The translations under genes and the position numbers were made by a program. Below, one piece after another: positions 7,972-41,667 of a stretch of 64,000 nt of DNA. Origin of the DNA: Thermoplasmatota archaeon. Its GTDB lineage: Archaea > Thermoplasmatota > E2 > JACPAO01 > JAHFTW01. Where the stretch lies: NCBI GenBank assembly GCA_041601615.1, contig JBFIHX010000004.1, positions 1 to 64,000 of the forward strand, read 5' to 3'. Position 1 is the stretch's first letter; each line of letters begins with the position of its first letter. The notes beneath the pieces are model-generated. The model did no database searches. It was not told where the DNA came from and was given only the letters and a program-made list of their open reading frames with translations.

Positions 7972-8207
7972 TTGGTTGGACCAACAGGGGTGAAGCGCCG
8001 ACTTTCTGCATTGTCAAACTTCATCCGATTTTGGGGCAATTGCTTGCAACCCCACGGAATCTTTCACCCGCCGGTGGTAGCTATGGCCAGCAAATCCCCA
8101 ATTTAGGTGTATGTTGAATGATTGGCGAATGTGGAATCGGACCCTTCCTTCCGCCCCCCTTATGCGATCCCGCTTAAGCCGCTGCACCCAGAATCAGGAT
8201 GTGCGGT

Positions 8208-8582
8208 TCAGCGCTTATCGTCGCCAGGAAGGGGGCGTATGTCGGGGCGGGTGACGAGGTAGAGTTCGCGTGCCACCATGCTGGCAAACAGGTATCCGAC
8301 GAGCACAGCGCCGATGCGGATGTAGATGACGACGCCTTCTGCAGGCATGGGCCAGTAGAACATGGCCTGCACATCTCCGATGATGACGCCTCCGATGATC
8401 ACGCCGAGGTAGTAGGTGAAGATCGCCCAGACGAGGAATCTCAGGTTGCGTGCGGCCTTGCGGAAATGGCCGAAGGCTTCTGCCTCAAACGTGCGCACGA
8501 GGTGGTCGACGCGGATGGAGAGGTAGAGGGGCGCAGCTAGCCACACAACGGCTACGATGGACCAGAACCAGTGCACGCCCAC
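8208..8582 (-). CDS. small membrane protein (about 3 TM)
   Basis: three hydrophobic segments. Confidence 0.55.
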   Translation of the reverse strand: MGVHWFWSIVAVVWLAAPLYLSIRVDHLVRTFEAEAFGHFRKAARNLRFLVWAIFTYYLGVIIGGVIIGDVQAMFYWPMPAEGVVIYIRIGAVLVGYLFASMVARELYLVTRPDIRPLPGDDKR

Positions 8583-8955
8583 AAGGTCGACCTGCGTTGT
8601 ACTGATTCAAGTCTTCCGAAGTTCAGCCGACAGGAGGGAGCCATTATTTTATAAGAATTGGTCATAAAAATATCAGGGTTTGGGTGACCGCCCCATTGTT
8701 GCTTGCCGAGGCCGCTTGCTCGTTGTGTTTGGCCCATTTTATTGGCGAACCACACAGTTTACTGAATTTGGTTTTCTCCCGCAGTTTTCGGGATGTCCAA
8801 AATTCGCAGAAATCACAGTGGACCTCACCCTCCATGTGGGCGATAAACCATGGATATACCCCAAATTTAGTGGGTTTCGACCAGGCCGCGAAAAAGTGAT
8901 GGGCCCGAGGCAAGAGAAAGAGGAAGGAAAAGGGAAGCCGGCAACGGCTTTGAAA

Positions 8956-30635: not shown

Positions 30636-30698
30636 ACGGCAAGCGCTAAGGGGTTCGGCGCCTCCTTCGAATCGGCGCCACGGCGCCAGGTGTCTCCC

Positions 30699-31544
30699 AT
30701 GCGCGTCGCGACCCTCTGCATCCTGATGCTGCTGCTTGCCCCCATTGCCGCCGCGGCCGACGCCGACCGGGACGGAATCTCCGACGACACCGACAACTGC
30801 CCCACCGTCAAAAATGCAGACCAAGCCGACGCAAACAGCGACGGCGTCGGCGACGCCTGCGACCAGGACGAAGACGGCGTCGAAGACGAAATGGACAACT
30901 GTCCAAACACCCATAATTTCGATCAATCCGACTTCAACAGCGACGGCATCGGCGACGCCTGCGACCCCGACGGCGACCAAGTCCTCCTAGACGCCGACAA
31001 CTGCCCCAGCACCCCCAACCCGGACCAAAACGACACCAACGCGGACGGAGTAGGCGACGCCTGCGACACCGACGACGACGGCATCGACGACACCAAAGAC
31101 CTCTGCGTAGGCGTCTACGACCCCGAACAAAGGGACCTCGATGGCGACGGCAAAGGAGACGCCTGCGACAAGGACCGCGACGGCGACGGCTACCGCAACG
31201 AAGACGACGCCTTCCCCGACGACAAACGCTACTCCAGCGACCGCGACAACGACACCATCCCCGACGAATGGGACCAATGCGACGGCATCGACGACCGCAT
31301 CGACAACGACCACGACGGCGTCCCCGACGGCTGCGACCCCCGGTACAAGACCCAGCGCCTCAACGACACCCTTGCAGCCTACGAGTCTGACATCGCCGGC
31401 AACGCCGAAAAGGACGACCGAACCACGCTGCAAACCCTCCGCGACGGCCCCTTCGGAAATCCCACCTACTGGGCCGCACTCATCGTGCTCGGAGTGCTCT
31501 TCATCGCCCTCGTTGCAGTCGCGGCCTTCAAACGCAACCGTTGA
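30699..31544 (+). CDS. thrombospondin type-3 repeat protein, membrane anchored
   Basis: repeated DNCP..N.DQ.D...DGVGDACD; signal peptide and C-terminal TM. Confidence 0.9.
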   Translation: MRVATLCILMLLLAPIAAAADADRDGISDDTDNCPTVKNADQADANSDGVGDACDQDEDGVEDEMDNCPNTHNFDQSDFNSDGIGDACDPDGDQVLLDADNCPSTPNPDQNDTNADGVGDACDTDDDGIDDTKDLCVGVYDPEQRDLDGDGKGDACDKDRDGDGYRNEDDAFPDDKRYSSDRDNDTIPDEWDQCDGIDDRIDNDHDGVPDGCDPRYKTQRLNDTLAAYESDIAGNAEKDDRTTLQTLRDGPFGNPTYWAALIVLGVLFIALVAVAAFKRNR

Positions 31545-32435: not shown

Positions 32436-33593
32436 ATGCGTGATGTGTGCGTCGTCGGCGTCGGCATCACAAAGTACGGACGACACCAGTTGCACGCCCG
32501 AGAATTGATGAGCATGGCCGCCGACGCAGCGATCGGCAACGCCGGCATCGACGCCACGGACATCGAAGGCGGCTATTTTGGCAACGCATTCGGAATGGCC
32601 GAAAAACAGGGCCACCTCGGACCCCTCATCATGACGGCACTCGGCATCCCCGAAGTGCCCGCCACCGTCATGGAGACCGCCTGCGCCAGCGCCGGAACCG
32701 CCTTCCACCACGCCTACCGAGACGTAGCCGGCGGCTTTAGCGACATCGTGCTCACCGGCGGCGTCGAACGCGTCAGCATGCTCGACACCCTCACCGCCAC
32801 GACCTACTTCTCCTACGGCAGCGACTACACCTTCGAAGGCGGCAACGGCTGCAGCTTCCCCGGCCTCTACGCCACCATGGCCCGCGGCTACTTTGACAAA
32901 TACGGCGCCACCGAGGAAGACCTCGCCGCCGTCGCCATCAAAAACCACCACAACGCCACCATGAACCCCGTTGCACACCTGCAAAAGGAAATCACCATGG
33001 ACGACGTGATGGGCTCGATGAAGGTCGCAGATCCGCTGAAGCTCTACGACGCCTGCCCCTTCAGCGACGGAGCCGCCGCCGTGATCCTCTGCGACGAAGA
33101 AACCGCCAAGAAACTCACAGACACCCCCGTCTACGTCGAAGCCAGCACCCGAAGCGGCAGTGTTGCAAGCCTGCACGACCGCGACGACCTCACAACGATC
33201 CCCGGCTCCGTGCGCGCCGGCGAATTGGCCTACAAGCAAGCCAAAATGACCCCCAAAGACATGGACTTCTGGGAAGTGCACGATTGCTTCACCATCGCCG
33301 AAGTGGTCGCAAGCGAAGACCTCGGCATCTTCGAGCGCGGCACAGGCGCACAAGCCGCCACCGACGGACTCACCGCTCACGACGGCAAGCGACCCATCAA
33401 CCCCAGCGGCGGTCTCAAAGCCAAAGGCCACCCCGTCGGCGCCACCGGAGCGGGCCAAATCGTGGAAGTCTACGAACAGCTACTCGGACAAGCAGGCGGA
33501 CGCCAAGTTAGCGACGCAACACGCGCCATGACCCACAACGTCGGCGCCACCGGCGGAACCGTAGTTACGAATATTTTGAGCCGGAGGTCCTGA
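32436..33593 (+). CDS. acetyl-CoA acetyltransferase (archaeal thiolase)
   Basis: ETACASA, EVHDCFT, NPSGGLKAKGHPVGATG. Confidence 0.93.
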   Translation: MRDVCVVGVGITKYGRHQLHARELMSMAADAAIGNAGIDATDIEGGYFGNAFGMAEKQGHLGPLIMTALGIPEVPATVMETACASAGTAFHHAYRDVAGGFSDIVLTGGVERVSMLDTLTATTYFSYGSDYTFEGGNGCSFPGLYATMARGYFDKYGATEEDLAAVAIKNHHNATMNPVAHLQKEITMDDVMGSMKVADPLKLYDACPFSDGAAAVILCDEETAKKLTDTPVYVEASTRSGSVASLHDRDDLTTIPGSVRAGELAYKQAKMTPKDMDFWEVHDCFTIAEVVASEDLGIFERGTGAQAATDGLTAHDGKRPINPSGGLKAKGHPVGATGAGQIVEVYEQLLGQAGGRQVSDATRAMTHNVGATGGTVVTNILSRRS

Positions 33594-33675
33594 GCATGCG
33601 ATGGACCTACGGCTCAGTGCGCGAAGCGAACGGACGCCGAGGCCCGCAGGGCCTTGACGGCGGGAGGCGAAACTG

Positions 33676-34074
33676 ATGGGACAAGAACAAGTCCACGCGG
33701 CGCCGCGCCCCATGCTTTCCATGACGGAGCAACAAGCCAAGCTCAAGGACGGCGAAATCTGGGGCTTCCACTGTGATGCTTGCTCCTACGAACAATTCAG
33801 CCCCATGCTGCGCTGCCCCAAGTGCCGCAAATCCGAACTCTCCACGCGCCAGTTCAGCAACAAAGGCAAAGTCATCAGCTACACCATCCAGAGTGTTGCC
33901 GCCGAGGCGTTCCTGAACGAAACGCCATTCGCCTTCGCCATCATCGACCTCGACGACGGCCCTAAGGTTAGTGGTTGGGTGCCTTGGATTGGCCGCCCGT
34001 CCGAGCTTCCCCTCGGTTCGGCCGTGGAGTACACGCCGAGCTACAAGCCGGGAATGCAATTCGAGAAGTGTTGA
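33676..34074 (+). CDS. DUF35 Zn-ribbon/OB-fold thiolase partner
   Basis: CDAC...CPKC, GKVISYTI, directly downstream of the thiolase. Confidence 0.9.
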   Translation: MGQEQVHAAPRPMLSMTEQQAKLKDGEIWGFHCDACSYEQFSPMLRCPKCRKSELSTRQFSNKGKVISYTIQSVAAEAFLNETPFAFAIIDLDDGPKVSGWVPWIGRPSELPLGSAVEYTPSYKPGMQFEKC

Positions 34075-34168
34075 GCGAAGCGAAACATTTCTCGAAGAGC
34101 GAGGCCGCAGGCCGAGCGGACCTTGGCGGCATGCTTGCACGCCGTCAAGGGGTTCGAGAAAGGCCGAG

Positions 34169-34310
34169 GCGCCCAGCGCCGAGGTCTTTCTCGCGTGTTC
34201 ACGAACCATGACACTCCACCCCCCGTTAATGCCGCACGCCGACGCGCCCAGCGCCGAGGTCTTTCTCGCGTGTTGACGAACCGTGGCACTCCACCCACCG
34301 CAATGCCGCA
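34169..34310. repeat. two imperfect tandem copies of a ~68-bp unit (period about 75 bp)
   Basis: gcgcccagcgccgaggtctttctcgcgtgtt(c/g)acgaacc...cactccacc...aatgccgca at ~34169 and ~34244. Confidence 0.85.
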
Positions 34311-34465
34311 GCCCCACCGGACCCAGGACAGCACAGAAGGCACAAGAGATAGAACCCGAGTGTATTGAGCCAATCAAACCGCTCTTGCAACCCATGAAAG
34401 TTTCCATTCCAGACACCCTGCGGCCATCCGATAAACTATTTTGACCCCCTTCCCCCATCCAGATT

Positions 34466-35281
34466 ATGGCCGACCTTCCCCACCTTGGCGTCGGACTGGG
34501 ATACCGCGAACCGATGCGCAGGGACATCCTCGCCAACCTTGGTGGCCTGGATTTTTTTGAAGTGGTCACGGACGCATACTTTCGCAACCCCAAGGCTTTG
34601 CAGGCGCTCGCGTCGCTGAAAACCTGCATTCCCCACTCCCTGCACTGCTCTGTGGGCTCCAGCACTGAACCCGCGTACCTGGAGAAGGTCGCAGGCATTG
34701 TCGAGAGCCTGGCGCCCCCGTGGCACTCCGACCACCTCGCCTTCACACACGCAGGCAACGTTTCCTCAGGCCACCTTGCGCCCATCCCTTACACGGACGA
34801 AGCCCTCGACCTCGTAGTGCAAAACATCCGCCGCATCCAAGCCCGCATCCCGGTGCCGTTTGCCCTCGAAAACATCACCATGGTGTTCTACTGGCCACAC
34901 TCCACCATGGACGAACACACGTTCCTGTCCGAAGTAGTTCGCCGCACCGGATGCCACCTCTTGCTCGATCTGGAAAACGTCCGCGTCAACACCATCAACC
35001 ACGGCCTATACGGTCGAGGCGGGCGCGACTTTCTTGACGCCCTGCCCCTGGAACGAGTGGCCCAAGTGCACATCGCCGGCGGCCAGCACCACAAAGGGCT
35101 CGAACACGACACCCACGCTGCGCCGGTCTCTGCCGCCACCTGGGACCTGCTTTCGTATCTTTGCGACCATGTCACCCCGCCGGGAATCCTTCTGGAACGA
35201 GACGCGGCGCTACCTCCATTTTCGGAACTTCTTGCAGAGGTCCAACGCGCCCGCTCCATCGTGCAGAGGGTGCTTGCATGA
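34466..35281 (+). CDS. DUF692 family multinuclear non-heme iron oxidative enzyme (MNIO; MbnB/TglH/ChrH/BufB-like)
   Basis: GVGLGYR, DFFEV, PHS, SDHLAF, LEN, LLLDLEN, HIAGG, DTH, LLERD metal-ligand motifs. Confidence 0.93.
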   Translation: MADLPHLGVGLGYREPMRRDILANLGGLDFFEVVTDAYFRNPKALQALASLKTCIPHSLHCSVGSSTEPAYLEKVAGIVESLAPPWHSDHLAFTHAGNVSSGHLAPIPYTDEALDLVVQNIRRIQARIPVPFALENITMVFYWPHSTMDEHTFLSEVVRRTGCHLLLDLENVRVNTINHGLYGRGGRDFLDALPLERVAQVHIAGGQHHKGLEHDTHAAPVSAATWDLLSYLCDHVTPPGILLERDAALPPFSELLAEVQRARSIVQRVLA

Positions 35282-36072
35282 GCATGGAAGCGATGCAGGT
35301 GGTGGCCGCAAAGCTGCTGACCGACCACGAATACCGCGCCTCCTTCTTCGATGCTCCACCCAACGCATTCGCGGATCACGGATTGGAACGCGCGGAGTTT
35401 CTGGTGTTGCGGATGCTCGACGCAAGCAAGCTGGACATTGTCTCCGAAGGCTATGTGGGCAAACGCTGGGACGTGATCGGCTCCGTGTTTCCACGAACAC
35501 TCGACGCCCTTGCCCATTTCTGCCCCGGCGCCCGCCAAACCTACCTAGAATCCACCTCGACCCCTGCAAACGACACCGAAGAACGGGCTGCATTCCGGAC
35601 GTTTCTGGACGAAACTATCGATGTGGCTACGGACGAACGCCGGTATCTTTGCGACCTAGCGCACTTGGACGGGGCACTACACGACCATCCACTTCCAGCC
35701 GGGCTTCCGGAATACCGATTCCGCCCAGAGAGTACCAAGCCACGTCGAGCAGCCGACGCCATCACCCTTGCCGTCGCCGGACCCTTAGAGCACCACATCG
35801 GACTCCGCACCAACACGAGCGCCCCCAGGCTCGAAGCATCCTCTTCGCCGCTGCCCTGGAGCTACTCGGAGAGTCCTCGGAACCTGTTGGTGCTGCGCGA
35901 GGGAGGCTCGTTCACACTCGAACTCCTGGACGACAACCAAGCGGCACTGCTTGCATCCTGCGACGGCACCCAGACCGTTGCCGCATTGGTGCAAGCGCAT
36001 GGAACAGACGCAGATAACCGGCTTCGCACATGGTTTCGGCACCGTATTGTGGAAGACGCAGCAAGCGTCTGA
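35278..36072 (+). CDS. MNIO partner protein (DUF2063/HvfC/BufC-like, C-terminal winged-helix/RRE-like)
   Basis: ATGA overlap with DUF692; KRWDVIGSVFPRTLDAL, DLAHLD, LLASCDGTQTVAAL. Confidence 0.75.
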   Translation: MSMEAMQVVAAKLLTDHEYRASFFDAPPNAFADHGLERAEFLVLRMLDASKLDIVSEGYVGKRWDVIGSVFPRTLDALAHFCPGARQTYLESTSTPANDTEERAAFRTFLDETIDVATDERRYLCDLAHLDGALHDHPLPAGLPEYRFRPESTKPRRAADAITLAVAGPLEHHIGLRTNTSAPRLEASSSPLPWSYSESPRNLLVLREGGSFTLELLDDNQAALLASCDGTQTVAALVQAHGTDADNRLRTWFRHRIVEDAASV

Positions 36073-36074
36073 AC

Positions 36075-36270
36075 ACGACTGAAATTAAATCTCAAGGTTT
36101 TCTTTTACTTTCATACCCATTTTAGTACCCACAAACGTCGCTTTGTTCCCCGTTTCCTAGTTATTTCATTCCCCCTCTTGCATTCTCAAATATATACTTG
36201 ATTGATTCTGATTAAGTGTGGAACATTATTCCTGCCAGTTGCAAACGGCCTTCTCGGCCAATTGCACAAC
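36075..36270 (+). promoter_or_regulatory. AT-rich promoter region with TATA-like box (~36188-36197) and a 5'-leader hairpin (36238-36270)
   Basis: aaatatatac; gttgcaa..ggcc-ttctc-ggcc..ttgca.aac followed by AAGGAG. Confidence 0.55.
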
Positions 36271-36286
36271 AAGGAGAGACACAAAC

Positions 36287-36604
36287 ATGAGCTACATCAA
36301 GCCCCTCGTCACCCTACTCGACAACACGACCGAACTCGCCGGCTGCCGCCCCTGCATCCAAGTCGGAGCCCTCGCCATCGGCCGCCAACCCAGCATCACC
36401 CTCGGCGACTCCATCGACGGCGTTCCGAGCAACGCCACGACCGTCGGCGCCCCGTGCCCCACGGCCCCCACCCCCGGCACCCCCGAAGTCGGCGGAATCA
36501 GCAAACCCGGACCGATCGACACCAACGACATCATCGCCAGCCACGGCATCTCCGACTCCTTCTCGGCAGACGTGGGCGGCGTAGACGTCACCGTCACCCT
36601 CTAG
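36287..36604 (+). CDS. small CxxC protein (105 aa), candidate MNIO substrate/RiPP precursor
   Basis: AAGGAG RBS, host-like C-ending codons, GCRPC at residues 19-23, directly after the MNIO pair. Confidence 0.65.
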   Translation: MSYIKPLVTLLDNTTELAGCRPCIQVGALAIGRQPSITLGDSIDGVPSNATTVGAPCPTAPTPGTPEVGGISKPGPIDTNDIIASHGISDSFSADVGGVDVTVTL

Positions 36605-36627
36605 GATCAGAGCAAGGACTGATATCC

Positions 36628-37263
36628 ATGCTCCCAAGAAAGATCCTGCTGCTCGCAGTGGCAATCCTGGTGACCCCCATGGTTGCCCCAGCTGGAGGCG
36701 CACACCCATACCCTGTGCCGGCCCCCGACCTAGGCCCCTGCAACGCCAGCGAACCGTCGCACCACTACGTCACCGGCACCAGCCTCGACGTTGGCAACTC
36801 CGCCCTGCCCACCGTCACGTGGCGCACCACCGTACTCCTGTTCGACTCGTGCGCCTTCATCGATGGTGAGGGCGACTTTGGCGTCGGCGGCGGCTTCCTG
36901 CCCACCAACCACCACGGCATTAACGGCGCTGGCGTGTGGAGCGGCGAAGTGTGCGTCGAAGACGACGTCTACGGTTTCGACGTGGAATTCGTTGTGGGCG
37001 TCAGCCCCGGCGGCGGCGTCATCAACGAAGTCGCACACGGAACCGGCTGCATCTACGTCAGCCTGCCCTCCTTCTACCCCCAGCCCGCACCGAACCCGCC
37101 CTCCCCGGGCGCGGACGGTGGCATCTGGGTGTTCCTGGAGAACACCGTTGGCGACCCCAACGCGGCAACGCAGATCAACCTCGACCCGAGCAACGTCTCG
37201 GCGACCGCCAAGGTTGCCCCCGGCGTAGTCGTGCCCACCACGGGACACATCTACACCCAGTAG
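36628..37263 (+). CDS. secreted hypothetical protein (4 Cys, His pairs)
   Basis: signal peptide MLPRKILLLAVAILV, AAGGA upstream, co-oriented with the candidate precursor. Confidence 0.7.
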   Translation: MLPRKILLLAVAILVTPMVAPAGGAHPYPVPAPDLGPCNASEPSHHYVTGTSLDVGNSALPTVTWRTTVLLFDSCAFIDGEGDFGVGGGFLPTNHHGINGAGVWSGEVCVEDDVYGFDVEFVVGVSPGGGVINEVAHGTGCIYVSLPSFYPQPAPNPPSPGADGGIWVFLENTVGDPNAATQINLDPSNVSATAKVAPGVVVPTTGHIYTQ

Positions 37264-37532: not shown

Positions 37533-38453
37533 TCAAGGGAACGTGGTCGCCACAGCCGACAACTCCGCCAACAACGCATCCCCTTCGGCATTCCCATACG
37601 TCACCAAAATCCGATCGTGGTCCCGCATCACATAACCATCAATGTGCGGCAACCGCGCCCAATTGTGGCTGCCGTTGGGCGCAACAAACACCCGCAGCGT
37701 CATGTTTTCCGAGTCCTCGTAGACCACGCCATCATGCACGGGCACATTCAGCCGCAGCCGACCCTGATGAAGCTCTGAGCCTAAAGACAACCAGAAGAAT
37801 TCCGACAACGTAAGCCCCGGCGCGCCTTCAATGTGCATCGAGTCCTGATCCGGATTGTGCATATGCGCACGAAGGAACCCCGAATTTTGCAAGTCAAACG
37901 CCGGATCCGTGAAATTGACGCGTTCGCCCTCGACAAAGACCGCAAACGCCGCGTGCAAGTGCACATCCTCGACCGGCTCCGGGGCCGTCAAAAACGCGAA
38001 CCCCACCACGCCCGAAAATGCCAGCACAATGGACAGCAACACCACCGGCAGCCACGGCACAGCACGACGCTCGGGTGCTGGAGCCGCCGCCACAGCCCCC
38101 TCCTCCTTTGCCGCCTCGATGCGCTTGCGCAACAAAGCATCCGCCTCGTCCAGAATCAAACGGGCGCGCTCCACGAGCCCCTCAGCCCAACCCACCGCAT
38201 TGGCTGTGACCGCCATGTGGTGCTCCAATTCGTCCCCGCGCAGATACCGCGACAAGCTCCGAATCCCAAGCGCCAACAACACCAACGGAAGAGTCGTGCA
38301 GGCCCAAAGCAACCACAAAACCATCCCCGAGAACGGCAACCCACCCCCTTGCAATTGACCAAAAACATGCACGGACGCCAACACCAAGGAAGGAACCACG
38401 GGAGCCACCCAAACCACAGACGGCACACGATCCGTCACCCTCGGGCCACTCAT
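37533..38453 (-). CDS. membrane protein with His-rich extracellular domain
   Basis: 3 TM; HLHAAF...HMH...HIE pattern. Confidence 0.65.
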   Translation of the reverse strand: MSGPRVTDRVPSVVWVAPVVPSLVLASVHVFGQLQGGGLPFSGMVLWLLWACTTLPLVLLALGIRSLSRYLRGDELEHHMAVTANAVGWAEGLVERARLILDEADALLRKRIEAAKEEGAVAAAPAPERRAVPWLPVVLLSIVLAFSGVVGFAFLTAPEPVEDVHLHAAFAVFVEGERVNFTDPAFDLQNSGFLRAHMHNPDQDSMHIEGAPGLTLSEFFWLSLGSELHQGRLRLNVPVHDGVVYEDSENMTLRVFVAPNGSHNWARLPHIDGYVMRDHDRILVTYGNAEGDALLAELSAVATTFP

Positions 38454-39865
38454 GCAGCACCCCCCGCGGCCGCCGCATCTGCCCCACCCAAACCGCCCGC
38501 TCCCGCCGTAGAGGTCGTGCGCATGCTCTGCATCAACAACGGAGGCACAGCAGCCAACAACAACGTACCAGAAACAAGCGCCAATGCGAATGCAATGCCA
38601 TGCGACATAATCAGGAACGCCAACGCATACGGCGCGATGATGCCGGACGCCGTGATGCTCGCCTCACTCCACCCAAACGCCCCGCCCCGTTGCAAAGGCG
38701 GCACACTGTCAATGATGAGCGCCGCCGTCACCGGCCGCCCAAGGCCATCCGCAAGGCCCAGCAAAATCCAACTCACAATGATCCACGGCAAGGACGTTGT
38801 CGCCATCAAGAGATTGAAAAACGCAGCCGCGACCAAGCTCGACACCAACACCAACTTGTGTCTACCCGTGCGGTCTGCATAGCGTGCCCCAAACGGCTGA
38901 GCAAGCCCGAACGCCACCCAAGAGGAAGCAGCCACGATGCCCACCCATTGCACCGACAACCCTTGCAACACGAGGTAGCGCGGAAAATAGACCGGATAGA
39001 CCGCCACGGACAAGCCGAACAAGAACAGATACAAGGACGCCCAGCGAACATTGCGCCCCGCCTGCACCGGAATCGGCTGCGTGGACAACAGCCTGCTACG
39101 AATACGCTTGAGCCGTGTTCCCACCGGCCGCATGGACGCCCGCATGGAACGAATCTCCGTAGCCAACCGGCGCTCCTCAAGCCCCGAGCCAGCCAGAGGA
39201 CCCGCACGAACCCCTCCGCCCACGCTTGCACCGGCGCCTACGCCCGCGCCACCATGCCGGCCCGCAACCATGAGCGCCAGCAACGATAAAAAAGACGCAA
39301 ACGACAACAAGCCACCCAACAGGAAGACAAAACGATACCCAGACGCCAACATCAGACCCCCCACGACCAGACCCAACGCATGGCTCCATCCCTTGGTGAG
39401 TCCGAAGTACGCATACACCGTCGCTCGAACATTGCGCGGCGCCACCTCCGCCATCAACACCTGCAAACCAGGCCCCGATGCGGCGCCCGAAAGCGAACCG
39501 GCAGCAGCCAGCGCCAGAAACTGCAACGGCGTGTGCACCAACAAATACGCCGGGAACGTCAACACCGACACGAAGACAAAACCAAGCACCACCGCCGGAC
39601 GACCAAAGAACCGATGGTGCCGCCCCGCCAACAACTGCACAACAATCGCCACCACCGCCATCAGGCTGTAGATGCCACCCACCTGCAAGAACGTCATACC
39701 CCGATCCAAAAAGAACAACGGCAACACCGTCACCAAGAGACCGCCAAGGATTCCCGAAATGAGATAGACCGCCAAAAACAACTTCAAACGCGGAGCACGC
39801 CGCAACACATCCCGCATTTCCACCCAAAAAGTGCGCACACGCCCTCTTTGGCTCTCACTTGGCAT
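38450..39865 (-). CDS. MFS transporter
   Basis: about 12 TM, GARYADRTGR motif A, RGGAFG; start at ATG 39865. Confidence 0.85.
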   Translation of the reverse strand: MPSESQRGRVRTFWVEMRDVLRRAPRLKLFLAVYLISGILGGLLVTVLPLFFLDRGMTFLQVGGIYSLMAVVAIVVQLLAGRHHRFFGRPAVVLGFVFVSVLTFPAYLLVHTPLQFLALAAAGSLSGAASGPGLQVLMAEVAPRNVRATVYAYFGLTKGWSHALGLVVGGLMLASGYRFVFLLGGLLSFASFLSLLALMVAGRHGGAGVGAGASVGGGVRAGPLAGSGLEERRLATEIRSMRASMRPVGTRLKRIRSRLLSTQPIPVQAGRNVRWASLYLFLFGLSVAVYPVYFPRYLVLQGLSVQWVGIVAASSWVAFGLAQPFGARYADRTGRHKLVLVSSLVAAAFFNLLMATTSLPWIIVSWILLGLADGLGRPVTAALIIDSVPPLQRGGAFGWSEASITASGIIAPYALAFLIMSHGIAFALALVSGTLLLAAVPPLLMQSMRTTSTAGAGGLGGADAAAAGGAA

Positions 39866-39956
39866 GCAAGGAGCACAGTCAAAGACGCAAATTAAAACAG
39901 GGGCGGGGAACAACATGACGCCCGGCGGTTTTGATACCGCCACGCATCCGCACACC

Positions 39957-40844
39957 ATGGAGGGGCTCATTCTGACGCTCGTTGGGACCGGCACCCACCA
40001 AGCCGTGCTGCCCCGCCGCATCCACCTAGACCTACGCCCCGGCACCGGCCAATTGCACATCCCCGACGCGCCCGGCGCCGACGTATCATGGCGCTCCTCC
40101 GTAGACGCCGCCTGGTGCTCTGCCCTCGCCCTGACCCATCGCAACGATGTGGACGGCGAACTTCGCGTCACAAGCCCCAACCCCATGAGCGGCATCAGCG
40201 CAGGACTCAGCGTAGGCCTCCTCTCGCTTGCCTGCTTGCTCGATCGACCCCAGCCACCCGCCCATTTTGCCACGGGAGGCGTCCTCAAACCCACAAGCCA
40301 AGACACCCAAGTCGGCTGGCTGCAAGGCGGCAACGCCACAGCAATCAAATCCAACGCCGCCGCCCGACTAGCACCCCAACTCGGCTTGCACCAGCCCATA
40401 TTCCTAGCCCCACCCGGACCCACCACCCCCGTGCCCGGAGTCCAATTGCGCACCGCCACCGACCTCGCAACCGCCTACCGCCACATTGATCACATCGGCT
40501 ACCAAGAATTGGCAGCACGCCACCACGAGCTGCTGCACTCCTCGGCCTCCACACCCGACCCCGGCCCGACCGCATGGATCCACCCCTCCCGCAACGCGCC
40601 TCCACGCACATTGCCACCCCACATCGAAGGCATCCGCATCCACGCAGGCGACCCACGCAACGAATTGAACCCAGGCCAAGTATTGGTGCGCCTGGAAGAC
40701 GCCGGACGCATGCTCTGGGCCGTGCAGTGTGCCAACACCCCGGACCTCGCCGAAGCCCTTCCCCAATGGATGGACTACGCCCGCGCAGCCGCCGCGGCCC
40801 CAGACCCATCCTCGACCGGGCGCGATGGCGCAGACTTGGCGTAG
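39957..40844 (+). CDS. stand-alone Lon (S16)-like proteolytic domain protein
   Basis: RPGTGQ, SGISAG, ATG, KSNAA (Ser-Lys dyad pattern), no AAA+ domain. Confidence 0.6.
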   Translation: MEGLILTLVGTGTHQAVLPRRIHLDLRPGTGQLHIPDAPGADVSWRSSVDAAWCSALALTHRNDVDGELRVTSPNPMSGISAGLSVGLLSLACLLDRPQPPAHFATGGVLKPTSQDTQVGWLQGGNATAIKSNAAARLAPQLGLHQPIFLAPPGPTTPVPGVQLRTATDLATAYRHIDHIGYQELAARHHELLHSSASTPDPGPTAWIHPSRNAPPRTLPPHIEGIRIHAGDPRNELNPGQVLVRLEDAGRMLWAVQCANTPDLAEALPQWMDYARAAAAAPDPSSTGRDGADLA

Positions 40845-40878: not shown

Positions 40879-41667
40879 CTACGCGGCTGGCTTGCGACCC
40901 ATCACATGCAGAGCCGCACCCATCGCCGCCACCGACGAATACAACGCCATTTGTTCCTCGAGCGCCCAAAAACGACGACGCAAATCCTCGTTCTCTTGCA
41001 AGGCCACAAACACCTCCTCGGTCACGAAATTGTTCAACGAGCCCTTCCCCGCCACCAACACGTCCTCGGCGCCCGCCTCCACAAACAACGACTCCAATTC
41101 AGCCGGAGCAAACGCATGGACCGTGTTGCCATACGGGTCCTTATTCAGGCCCTGCTCCGCACAAACCAAGGCATCCTCAACGCTACCCTGCGTCAGCATT
41201 CCAATCGCATGCAACCAGCGGTTGTCGCACGACACATAGAAACCCCCGCCCGGCCGCAAGACCCGCAAAAACTCCCGCGCCACCTCCTTGCGCGAATCAA
41301 AGCAATACGACAACGGATCACCTTCACAGAACACGAAATCGAAGGCACCATCCTCGAAGGGCAAATCATCGATGCTGCCCTCGACGTAACGCACCGGAGC
41401 GTCCGACGGAAACTCCTCGCCTATGCGTGTGCGCGCCACGTCCAGCATACCCTTCGACAAATCCAACAACGTCACATCGAAGCCCTGGCGAAGATAATGC
41501 ACCGAGAACCGCCCCGTCCCCGCGCCCGCATCCAGAACCCGACCCGACGACGGCAGCACGGTCGCGGCACTCTTCAAAGTCAAATGGTCCAGCAACTTCC
41601 AACGCGGACCGCTCACATGGCCGTCGTATTCGCTGGCCACCTCATCGTAACAGGCAATCGCATCCAT
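40879..41667 (-). CDS. class I SAM-dependent methyltransferase
   Basis: VLDAGAGTG, LDLS..ML, LPFEDGAFD, RVLRPGG. Confidence 0.9.
   Translation of the reverse strand: MDAIACYDEVASEYDGHVSGPRWKLLDHLTLKSAATVLPSSGRVLDAGAGTGRFSVHYLRQGFDVTLLDLSKGMLDVARTRIGEEFPSDAPVRYVEGSIDDLPFEDGAFDFVFCEGDPLSYCFDSRKEVAREFLRVLRPGGGFYVSCDNRWLHAIGMLTQGSVEDALVCAEQGLNKDPYGNTVHAFAPAELESLFVEAGAEDVLVAGKGSLNNFVTEEVFVALQENEDLRRRFWALEEQMALYSSVAAMGAALHVMGRKPAA

Follow-up and report, generated by a model that had tools for sequence, protein, structure and literature searches.

A candidate MNIO-partner system for a small cysteine protein in a marine Thermoplasmatota archaeon

Which protein does an archaeal MNIO (DUF692) enzyme modify, if it modifies a protein at all? 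The question is raised by a locus in a marine Thermoplasmatota MAG with a GC content of ~62%. The locus lies in a window of 64,000 nucleotides, the whole stretch of DNA that was analysed, and its DNA occurs in four marine-metagenome DNA sequencing runs of one study. Four genes, all on the + strand, were confirmed within 34466..37263; they encode the MNIO, a partner protein, a small Cys protein and a protein with a signal-like N-terminus. The MNIO systems named in the literature consulted, including the main text of Antoine et al. 2025 (PMC12452194), are all bacterial. Full-text searches of main texts found no description of an archaeal MNIO; the supplementary tables of PMC12452194 may list some. 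Judged from its sequences, the locus appears to be an archaeal variant of a known MNIO-partner type, with an enzyme clade of its own and a partner family that is missed by Pfam. It is probable that the pair oxidises Cys residues of small proteins, and the small protein encoded directly downstream is the candidate substrate.

The MNIO and its partner protein

The MNIO (271 aa; 34466..35281, + strand) matches PF05114 (MbnB_TglH_ChrH) with an E value of 1.2e-76 and 257.9 bits, against a cut-off of 25, over positions 1-262 of the 263 in the profile. The conserved His, Asp, Glu and Asn positions are all present and align with those of 3bww and TglH. Across 18 clade members there is no variation at H57, D89, H90, H103, E135, D168, N171, H179, H202, D215, H217, E244 and D246. 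Published work on MbnB and TglH leads us to take H57, H90, E135, D168, N171, H202, D215, H217 and E244 to be the iron ligands. The profile match and the invariant ligand-type residues thus bear out the initial annotation, which had described an intact DUF692 enzyme with His/Glu/Asp motifs, and the genome is that of an archaeon.

The top-scoring NCBIfam models for the MNIO are those of BufB (NF050167, 204.5 bits) and the oxazolin maturase HvfB (NF003818, 171.1 bits), and both scores are under the curated equivalog cut-offs of 310 and 360, respectively. The MbnB, ChrH and ApyH equivalogs gave 49, 45.7 and 121.2 bits, with cut-offs of 325, 600 and 400. In the tree, the enzyme falls in a separate clade of 43 sequences (tree rows) with SH-aLRT support of 99-100, here termed type A. 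A scan of genome contigs matched the MNIO in the sister genome and in one bacterium (41% identity), and in no others. Within a 401-genome sample of the phylum, type-A MNIOs were found in genomes G000, G002, G025, G026 and G156. By its scores below the cut-offs and its separate clade, the MNIO falls in none of the characterised bacterial families, membership of which would have spoken against the initial reading.

The partner protein (264 aa; 35278..36072, + strand) is encoded directly after the MNIO, with its ATG overlapping the MNIO stop codon as ATGA at 35278-35281, an arrangement in line with the translational coupling proposed initially. No Pfam family, including DUF2063/PF09836 and PqqD, matches the partner even at E<=10, and NF038399 scores 22 bits, under its cut-off. 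The AF2 model of the partner (pLDDT 83.6) is related in fold to the partners of bacterial MNIOs. Foldseek matched it to TglI (E 4.3e-5) and NGO1945 (E 1.5e-4). VIA-align gave a Z of 12.5 with NGO1945 (3dee; 183 residues aligned, rmsd 3.9) and of 11.7 with TglI (234 of 264 residues, 13-16% identity); the next unrelated row stands at 6.4. Chain D of 8hci is the MNIO TglH, and chain A was therefore taken as TglI.

The predicted model consists of an N-terminal NHLP/Os1348-like helical hairpin (residues 1-57 match Os1348 with Z 6.4 in VIA-align), a helical middle and a putative C-terminal RRE-like winged-helix module. Strands 201-207, 212-216 and 258-260 and helices in 219-254 make up the C-terminus. 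The C-terminal strand/helix module (~145-264) and the whole chain both match NGO1945 and TglI, and residues 145-264 also match the RRE-bearing MibB (Z 5.8) and ThcOx (Z 4.1). Since the C-terminus of the model matches NGO1945 and TglI and no Pfam family is found, the winged-helix/RRE-like region claimed for the partner is supported by predicted fold and not by sequence. More remote members of the partner family show weak C-terminal matches to PqqD or NGO1945_C, and in G156 a PqqD gene (PF05402, 2.1e-9) is located within the same cluster. By its position directly after the MNIO and its lack of a PF09836 match, the partner fits the type with an NGO1945/TglI fold but no DUF2063 signature, termed 'PME-type 2' in the main text of PMC12452194. 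A metagenome scan with the partner profile returned two loci only, one of them the G156 sequence and the other a 1.1-kb fragment.

The small cysteine protein and the surrounding genes

A 214-bp AT-rich spacer (36073..36286; 39.7% GC) separates the partner gene from the small gene. Blocks such as TTGATTGATTCTGATTAAGTG, plus AGGAG, are shared with the sister genome G002. The spacer probably contains a promoter and 5' leader for the small gene, and it is plausible that this gene is separately promoted, as had been suggested initially. A scan for sigma-70 promoters and terminators gave nothing above shuffles; the consensus is bacterial and does not apply to archaeal promoters. A precursor 5' of the MNIO, in a 390-bp spacer with a 75-nt repeat, was considered and dropped because the sister genome has a gap of just 108 bp at the same place.

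The small protein (105 aa; 36287..36604, + strand; family alignments A2 and A6) has no signal peptide and contains the CxxC motif reported initially, as Cys20-x-x-Cys23 (C-R-P-C), together with Cys57. Y3, K5, P6, E16, A18, C20, C23 and C57 are invariant among nine family sequences, so that the family has both a conserved N-terminal segment and a conserved target-type residue; G156-type members have CC instead of CxxC. Family members are 96-152 aa with internal Cys, and most are alike along their full length. This whole-length conservation indicates that the family resembles a small protein more than a classic leader-plus-core peptide. The family is very rare (14 proteins among 5.8 billion), and no Pfam family matches the small protein at E<=10. 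A lipobox reading of L-A-G-C (residues 17-20) was rejected because the sequence ahead of it lacks a hydrophobic signal segment and has acidic and polar residues just before the motif. The predicted complex of MNIO, partner and residues 1-45 of the small protein scored 0.27, below the mark of 0.32, which speaks neither for nor against binding.

The small gene is directly 3' of the partner gene, in continuous sequence, in all three loci that have both genes on one contig (G000, G026 and G156/L035), and in G002 it follows the partner gene across a contig break. The genomes concerned belong to two archaeal families (f1 and f15); partner identity is ~39%. In the 401-genome sample the small family was found in G000, G002, G026 and G156, all of which have a type-A MNIO-partner pair; the genomes are related to one another, and about three independent lineages underlie this count. 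The only further match is a marginal one (9.3e-4) in G255, a genome without a type-A pair. A small-family protein (P0280) and a clade-A MNIO (P0009), each on a 7545-base contig, may come from one contig. Searches of G025 (87% complete) and G029 (71% complete) found the MNIO and partner but no homologue of the small or the secreted protein. The partner gene of G029 is immediately followed by a convergent membrane-protein gene, which leaves no space for a small gene. G156 has nine dispersed copies of the small family, most of them beside housekeeping genes and far from the MNIO.

The fourth gene (36628..37263, + strand; family A3/A7) follows the small gene at a distance of 23 bp and encodes a 211-aa protein. 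As the initial annotation had it, the product seems to be secreted; its N-terminus (MLPRKILLLAVAILVTPMVAPAGGA) is signal-peptide-like by inspection. No Pfam (to E<=10) or NCBIfam match was found. The family is ~200 aa in length, has invariant Cys38, Cys75 and Cys141, and reaches up to 20 copies per genome. An AF2 model from 12 sequences had a pLDDT of 47.9 and was therefore unusable for a fold search. Among the 401 genomes, the secreted family was found in G000, G002, G026 and G156, plus a weak match in G066, and together with a 337-aa ORF it shares the distribution of the small family. Both downstream genes are thus conserved with the enzyme, which the initial annotation had made a test of its reading.

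The locus reaches past 34466..37263, and also includes the 337-aa ORF, an MFS transporter and a SAM-dependent methyltransferase. The 337-aa ORF (39831..40844, + strand) is singled out by its distribution, being present in G000, G002 and G026 (three of 61 relatives) and in G156. It has no Pfam, NCBIfam or PDB sequence match, and its only Atlas matches are Lon_C clusters, sub-threshold at 0.87 and 0.83. The ORF contains a GxSAG...K motif, which we take to be a sign of a Lon-type peptidase, and an S16/Lon-type peptidase is a weak lead. The MFS transporter (38450..39817, - strand; PF07690, E 8.8e-39) was listed as an ORF running to 40459; the likely start, MRDVLRR, is at 39817, and relatives are homologous from about residue 208-216 of the listed ORF onwards. 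The class I SAM-dependent methyltransferase (40879..41667, - strand; PF13649, E 4.5e-22; PF08241, E 4e-21) scores below the cut-offs of all NCBIfam equivalogs and is syntenic with the MNIO in G026 and G156. A 306-aa membrane protein with a His-rich C-terminal domain (37533..38453, - strand) adjoins the locus in G000, G002, G026, G029 and G156. Its domain occurs in 21 of 61 relatives, indicating that the gene is syntenic and not specific to the locus.

The probable substrate and a proposed mechanism

NGO1945-like partners without a DUF2063 signature pair with precursors that lack signal peptides, according to the main text of PMC12452194. The small protein therefore fits better as the substrate than the secreted protein. 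It is conceivable, but unlikely, that the pair modifies another substrate encoded elsewhere, and that the small, secreted and 337-aa proteins form a separate module that travels with it, made up for example of cell-surface or secreted proteins. G025 and G029 keep the pair without the module, yet in two archaeal families the small gene adjoins the partner gene, in each of the three one-contig loci and, across the contig break, in G002. Most small and secreted copies in G156 are far from the MNIO; however, the G255 match aside, none of the 401 sampled genomes that lack a type-A pair yielded a small-family member. The small and secreted genes are distinct in GC3 (0.89 and 0.83, compared to 0.73 for the MNIO and 0.67 for the partner), and in G026 the partner gene carries an internal stop beside an intact module, both of which favour a separate module. 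Against it, no other conserved small ORF was found beside the MNIO-partner pair in any locus inspected.

The secreted ~200-aa family would be the real substrate, and the small protein an accessory, if modification took place in the cytoplasm before Sec export, as for bufferins. This alternative seems improbable. In its favour, the secreted family is just as restricted in distribution and has three invariant Cys residues, and the main text of PMC12452194 describes many MNIO substrates with Sec signal peptides, some of them long. Yet the signal-peptide substrates in that text pair with true DUF2063 partners, and the partner here has no DUF2063 match at E<=10. Moreover, in G156 it is the small gene that adjoins the partner gene; the secreted homologue is ~5 kb away, on the other side. 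There is very little reason to suppose that the pair acts on no ribosomal peptide, oxidising for example a small molecule, or that the locus is non-functional. The genes are intact, the ligand set is invariant across the clade members compared, the partner is folded like a partner that binds peptides for an MNIO, and the MNIOs named in Table 1 of PMC12452194 all act on peptides.

Modification of the small protein by the MNIO-partner pair could proceed as follows. The substrate would be a ribosomally made protein. The 271-aa MNIO would be a TIM-barrel oxidase with a two- or three-iron site, working in a complex with the 264-aa partner that is translated from the overlapping start codon. The partner would serve as a TglI/NGO1945-like scaffold, with its C-terminal RRE-like winged-helix module predicted to bind a conserved stretch, M-x-Y-x-K-P-[LM]...E-x-A-[GAS], at the N-terminus of the small protein. 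Once bound, the small protein would have its invariant Cys20 at the iron site, followed within one to three residues by a second Cys. O2-dependent oxidation would then turn Cys most likely into a heterocycle or a thioamide-type group, as is the case for the Buf, Hvf and Mbn enzymes. Upstream, the substrate gene has an AT-rich region of its own. With nine dispersed copies of the small gene in one genome, many substrates would depend on a single enzyme pair. Later steps (binding, processing, export or methylation) are presumed to fall to the co-occurring secreted family and 337-aa ORF together with the MFS transporter and the methyltransferase.

That the substrate and secreted families are both multiplied within one genome hints at a combinatorial system and not at a single metabolite. 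A bolder proposal, which we regard as doubtful, is that of an archaea-specific system in which one MNIO-partner pair matures a whole family of signal-peptide-less proteins of ~100-150 aa that are rich in Cys and Tyr. These would act with the expanded secreted ~200-aa family as a new class of paired modified proteins and receptors, in signalling, adhesion or metal handling, with a chemistry unlike that of any characterised MNIO product. If the small protein is modified, MNIO chemistry would reach into the archaea and take in a new substrate scaffold, and the use of the product in an uncultured marine Thermoplasmatota lineage would become a question of interest. The locus offers a compact and testable archaeal case, with a candidate substrate from a very rare family.

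Relation to other MNIO systems

TglHI of Pseudomonas syringae, from the 3-thiaglutamate/pearlin pathway (8hi7, 8hci), is likewise a two-protein MNIO holoenzyme. The MNIO described here aligns with TglH at E 1.6e-23, and TglI has the same overall fold as the partner, both lacking the DUF2063 signature ('PME-type 2' in the main text of PMC12452194). The TglHI substrate is a peptide with a C-terminal Cys, whereas the candidate here is a 96-152-aa protein with internal Cys in an archaeal host. Neither a TglA-like peptide nor an amino-acid-adding enzyme was noticed among the annotated genes of the locus.

The BufBC and HvfBC systems (bufferins, oxazolins) have a partner, NGO1945 (3dee), with a fold like that of the partner here, and their substrates are Cys-bearing small proteins, as is the candidate. 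True BufB sequences are 34-37% identical to the MNIO. Unlike in Buf and Hvf, the candidate substrate lacks a Sec signal peptide, a DUF2282 domain and EGKCG repeats, and the partner lacks a DUF2063 signature; Pfam searches at E<=10 with the partner, small and secreted proteins found neither an adjacent DUF2282/Buf-type precursor nor a DUF2063 partner at the locus. ChrHI (chryseobasin) involves a two-Cys motif and S-methylation. The C-R-P-C motif of the candidate substrate and the nearby methyltransferase bring these features to mind. However, the ChrH model is far under its cut-off for the MNIO here, and G156-type members have CC in place of the spaced motif.

Putative Cys-motif precursors without signal peptides have been described beside minor MNIO clusters in the main text of Antoine et al. 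2025 (PMC12452194), namely 'adjamnio-7', with a CxxC motif, and 'adjamnio-IV', with CxxCC, 119-146 aa and 5-6 Cys. Both are bacterial, and adjamnio-IV is encoded before the MNIO and without a partner. The small family was compared to these precursors by their descriptions in that text, and may be identical to one of them. An archaeal comparison comes from the same phylum, in which a second group of MNIOs (type B) has ~36% identity to type A and forms a separate clade. As in type A, the type-B MNIO gene is followed by a partner gene, and the predicted substrates bear Cys. The type-B peptide is encoded upstream and is oxazolin-like, with tandem KSCGSA, KSCSS or QKSCST repeats.

Locus layout and host genome

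The initial annotation described an intact MNIO (PF05114, formerly DUF692) enzyme translationally coupled to a partner, followed by a small CxxC protein and a secreted protein. This array is confirmed, since all four genes were found as described, head to tail on the + strand. The MNIO gene (34466-35281; 271 aa) ends in the ATGA at 35278-35281, where its stop codon overlaps the ATG of the partner gene (35278-36072; 264 aa). A 214-bp spacer with a GC content of 39.7%, versus ~62% for the genome, precedes the small gene (36287-36604; 105 aa, with Cys20, Cys23 and Cys57), and a 23-bp gap separates the latter from the secreted gene (36628-37263; 211 aa), whose product is signal-peptide-like at its N-terminus by inspection. 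The window belongs to contig 4 of a genome of 2.79 Mb with 93% completeness. The source DNA is present in four marine-metagenome runs of one study, none recorded as RNA.

GC3 values are 0.89 and 0.83 for the small and secreted genes, compared to 0.67-0.73 for the MNIO, partner and neighbouring genes, which could reflect the codon bias of high expression or a separate origin or history. In the 390-bp spacer 5' of the MNIO gene, a 75-nt unit occurs twice in tandem (34163-34317; 63 nt at 92% identity). This unit has no other occurrence in the host genome, and the gap at the same place in the sister genome of the same genus (G002) is just 108 bp. Directly upstream of the MNIO gene (32436-34074) are a thiolase (PF00108, PF22691) and, after it, a DUF35-type OB-fold/zinc-ribbon protein (PF01796, PF12172), 95% and 87% identical, respectively, to those of the sister genome. 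A 284-aa secreted protein at 30690-31544 carries thrombospondin type 3 repeats (PF02412, E 2.5e-29, five stretches) and a C-terminal membrane anchor. At the other end of the locus, the first 214 codons (39818-40459) of a long - strand ORF (38450-40459) are antisense to a 337-aa ORF (39831-40844). In G156, a genome from another family of the phylum, these codons are not conserved within the MFS transporter. The probable start of the transporter in the window is 39817.

The MNIO and its partner

Assignment of the enzyme to DUF692 holds: PF05114 (MbnB_TglH_ChrH) matches the 271-aa protein over the whole profile (E 1.2e-76, 257.9 bits). Thirteen positions are invariant in an 18-member clade alignment (H57, D89, H90, H103, E135, D168, N171, H179, H202, D215, H217, E244 and D246) and have aligned counterparts in the MNIO structures 3bww (E 1.3e-30) and TglH (8hci chain D, E 1.6e-23). 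On the basis of published work on MbnB and TglH, we presume these positions to be the iron ligands. Nor does the enzyme fall among the characterised bacterial families, a placement that would have counted against the initial proposal. Its score stays under the cut-off of each curated NCBIfam model for a named MNIO, namely BufB (204.5 versus 310), HvfB (171.1 versus 360), ApyH (121.2 versus 400), MbnB (49 versus 325) and ChrH (45.7 versus 600), and its identity to true BufB sequences is just 34-37%. In a search of 5.8 billion proteins, 41 among the matches listed are 51-100% identical to the window MNIO, and the next are at most 47% identical. A contig from the same genus encodes an MNIO at 82% identity. 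The closest matches beyond this clade, termed clade A, likewise fall under the BufB cut-off. A quick IQ-TREE analysis of 119 rows separated the 43 rows of clade A from the rest at a branch with SH-aLRT support of 99-100.

The partner has no match in Pfam at a threshold as loose as E<=10. An AF2 model built from a profile of six homologues (mean pLDDT 83.6) gave TglI (8hi7 chain A, E 4.3e-5) and NGO1945 (3dee, E 1.5e-4) as best Foldseek matches, the next having an E of 0.17. VIA-align returned Z scores of 12.5 for NGO1945 (183 residues, rmsd 3.9) and 11.7 for TglI (234/264 residues), with later rows at 6.4 or lower. Residues 1-57 resemble Os1348, an NHLP-clan protein (Z 6.4, rmsd 1.8), in agreement with a sub-threshold NCBIfam hit. 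The suggestion of a coupled partner with a C-terminal RRE-like region is consistent with the ATGA overlap and with the predicted model, in which residues 145-264 resemble the RRE-bearing proteins MibB (Z 5.8) and ThcOx (Z 4.1). Searched against 1.84 billion entries, the partner profile retrieved 30 cluster representatives at E<=1e-30, a number that rose to 577 at E<=1e-3; among 20 relatives scanned, weak C-terminal matches to PqqD and NGO1945_C occurred in five and two, respectively. A 2025 survey (Antoine et al. 2025, PMC12452194) describes 'PME-type 2' partners as NGO1945-like, encoded 3' of the MNIO and not recognised by the DUF2063 signature, a description that the window partner fits. Three full-length distant relatives (P0172, P0190 and P0265; ~705-715 aa) are fused behind a group-1 glycosyltransferase, which hints at RiPP-type systems where the recognition protein serves a glycosyltransferase and not an MNIO.

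Distribution and gene neighbourhoods

One sample of 401 phylum genomes was queried with several families, along with a separate set of 61 relatives. PF05114 is present in 14 of the 401. The window type, at least 54% identical, accounts for five (the window's own genome G000, G002, G025, G026 and G156) and a second type, ~36% identical to the window MNIO, for eight; G207 has a weak partial match (E 1.9e-12) outside both classes as counted. The partner type is found in 5/61 relatives, the window's own included, and in G156. The expectation that the downstream ORFs are conserved with the MNIO was borne out, as the small and secreted families occur in G000, G002, G026 and G156, all with a window-type MNIO, a co-occurrence that rests on about three lineages of interrelated genomes. 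Among the 401, the small family is confined to these four, with one marginal match in G255 (9.3e-4; a low-complexity stretch with a stop), and the secreted family adds a weak match in G066, a congener of G156. The 337-aa ORF is in G000, G002 and G026 of the 61 relatives and in G156. In contrast, the 306-aa membrane protein has a widespread C-terminal domain (21/61 relatives).

The G026 locus runs MNIO, partner, 108-aa small protein and 185-aa secreted protein. In G002 the MNIO contig stops inside the partner gene, and another contig opens with the small, secreted and membrane-protein genes in window order. In G156, on a 378-kb metagenome contig of identical sequence, a 142-aa small protein begins 56 bp 3' of the partner gene, and a secreted homologue lies ~5 kb off on the opposite side; this cluster also holds a PqqD gene (PF05402, 2.1e-9). 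The MFS transporter and SAM methyltransferase keep their synteny with the MNIO and partner genes in G026 and G156. The small gene is absent from the MNIO-partner loci of G025 and G029, and no small or secreted homologue was detected in either genome (87% and 71% complete). In G025, an ArsR-type HTH plus FHA-domain regulator (L007, 7278-8105) lies 3' of the pair in place of these genes, and in G029 a convergent membrane-protein gene lies immediately beside the partner gene. A 2097-aa secreted protein precedes the pair in G025. In G026, the partner gene beside the intact MNIO is broken by an in-frame TAA and a frame change (L008, about 8150-8908), either a pseudogene or an assembly error.

The small-family profile has just 14 matches among 5.8 billion proteins. 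Genome by genome, there is a single copy in the window's genome, and there are nine matches in G156. Nine sequences share invariant Y3, K5, P6, E16, A18, C20, C23 and C57, and the usual form is M-x-Y-x-KPLFAPV..DRESAGCCFYYNNAGQGFYYY ... VTPLCGTGLPATQPQTFG.P.G.TG. The window protein is a shorter, diverged version with the motif C-R-P-C. A hydrophobic signal segment is found in no family member. The G156 copies mostly adjoin housekeeping genes, several at contig ends. Several G156 contigs (C47, C20, C43 and C21; L049, L046, L053 and L054) start or stop inside small-gene copies, which suggests that the repeated family disrupts the assembly. The secreted family has up to 20 matches in G156.

A candidate substrate and a second MNIO type

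In the best-supported reading, towards which we lean, the MNIO and partner would form a holoenzyme, the small protein would dock through its conserved N-terminal segment onto the partner's RRE-like module, and Cys20 and/or the neighbouring Cys would be oxidised at the iron site. The small protein is favoured over the secreted protein as substrate because partners without the DUF2063 signature go with precursors without signal peptides, according to PMC12452194. Weighing against a small-protein substrate, G025 and G029, both incomplete, have the pair without a small or secreted homologue, the G156 copies are mostly dispersed, the G026 partner gene is interrupted, and the GC3 of the small and secreted genes exceeds that of the enzyme genes. 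The family is also conserved over its full length and is therefore more protein-like than a leader-plus-core peptide. The enzyme's proximity to the BufB and HvfB models gives no more than a hint that the product may be a heterocycle or thioamide. For the secreted family, 337-aa ORF, MFS transporter and methyltransferase, we infer roles in the system from distribution and position only.

The MNIO enzyme class and its logic are already known; the MNIO clade, candidate substrate family, accessory genes and host domain are new. A full-text literature search for MNIO or DUF692 with archaea returned no description of an archaeal MNIO system, with the proviso that the supplementary tables of PMC12452194 might list some. 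That survey downloaded archaeal genomes, yet its text refers to the eubacterial tree. MNIO and DUF692 go unmentioned in a 2025 paper on archaeal RiPPs.

The second MNIO type (type B), ~36% identical and in a separate clade, occurs at L026-L033 (G006, G015, G019, G022, G023, G136, G148 and G152). A short peptide with tandem Cys repeats (KSCGSA, KSCSS or QKSCST, up to ~15 copies) is encoded just upstream of the MNIO, and a partner gene lies downstream. Type B loci resemble oxazolin/HvfA systems and may be their archaeal equivalent.
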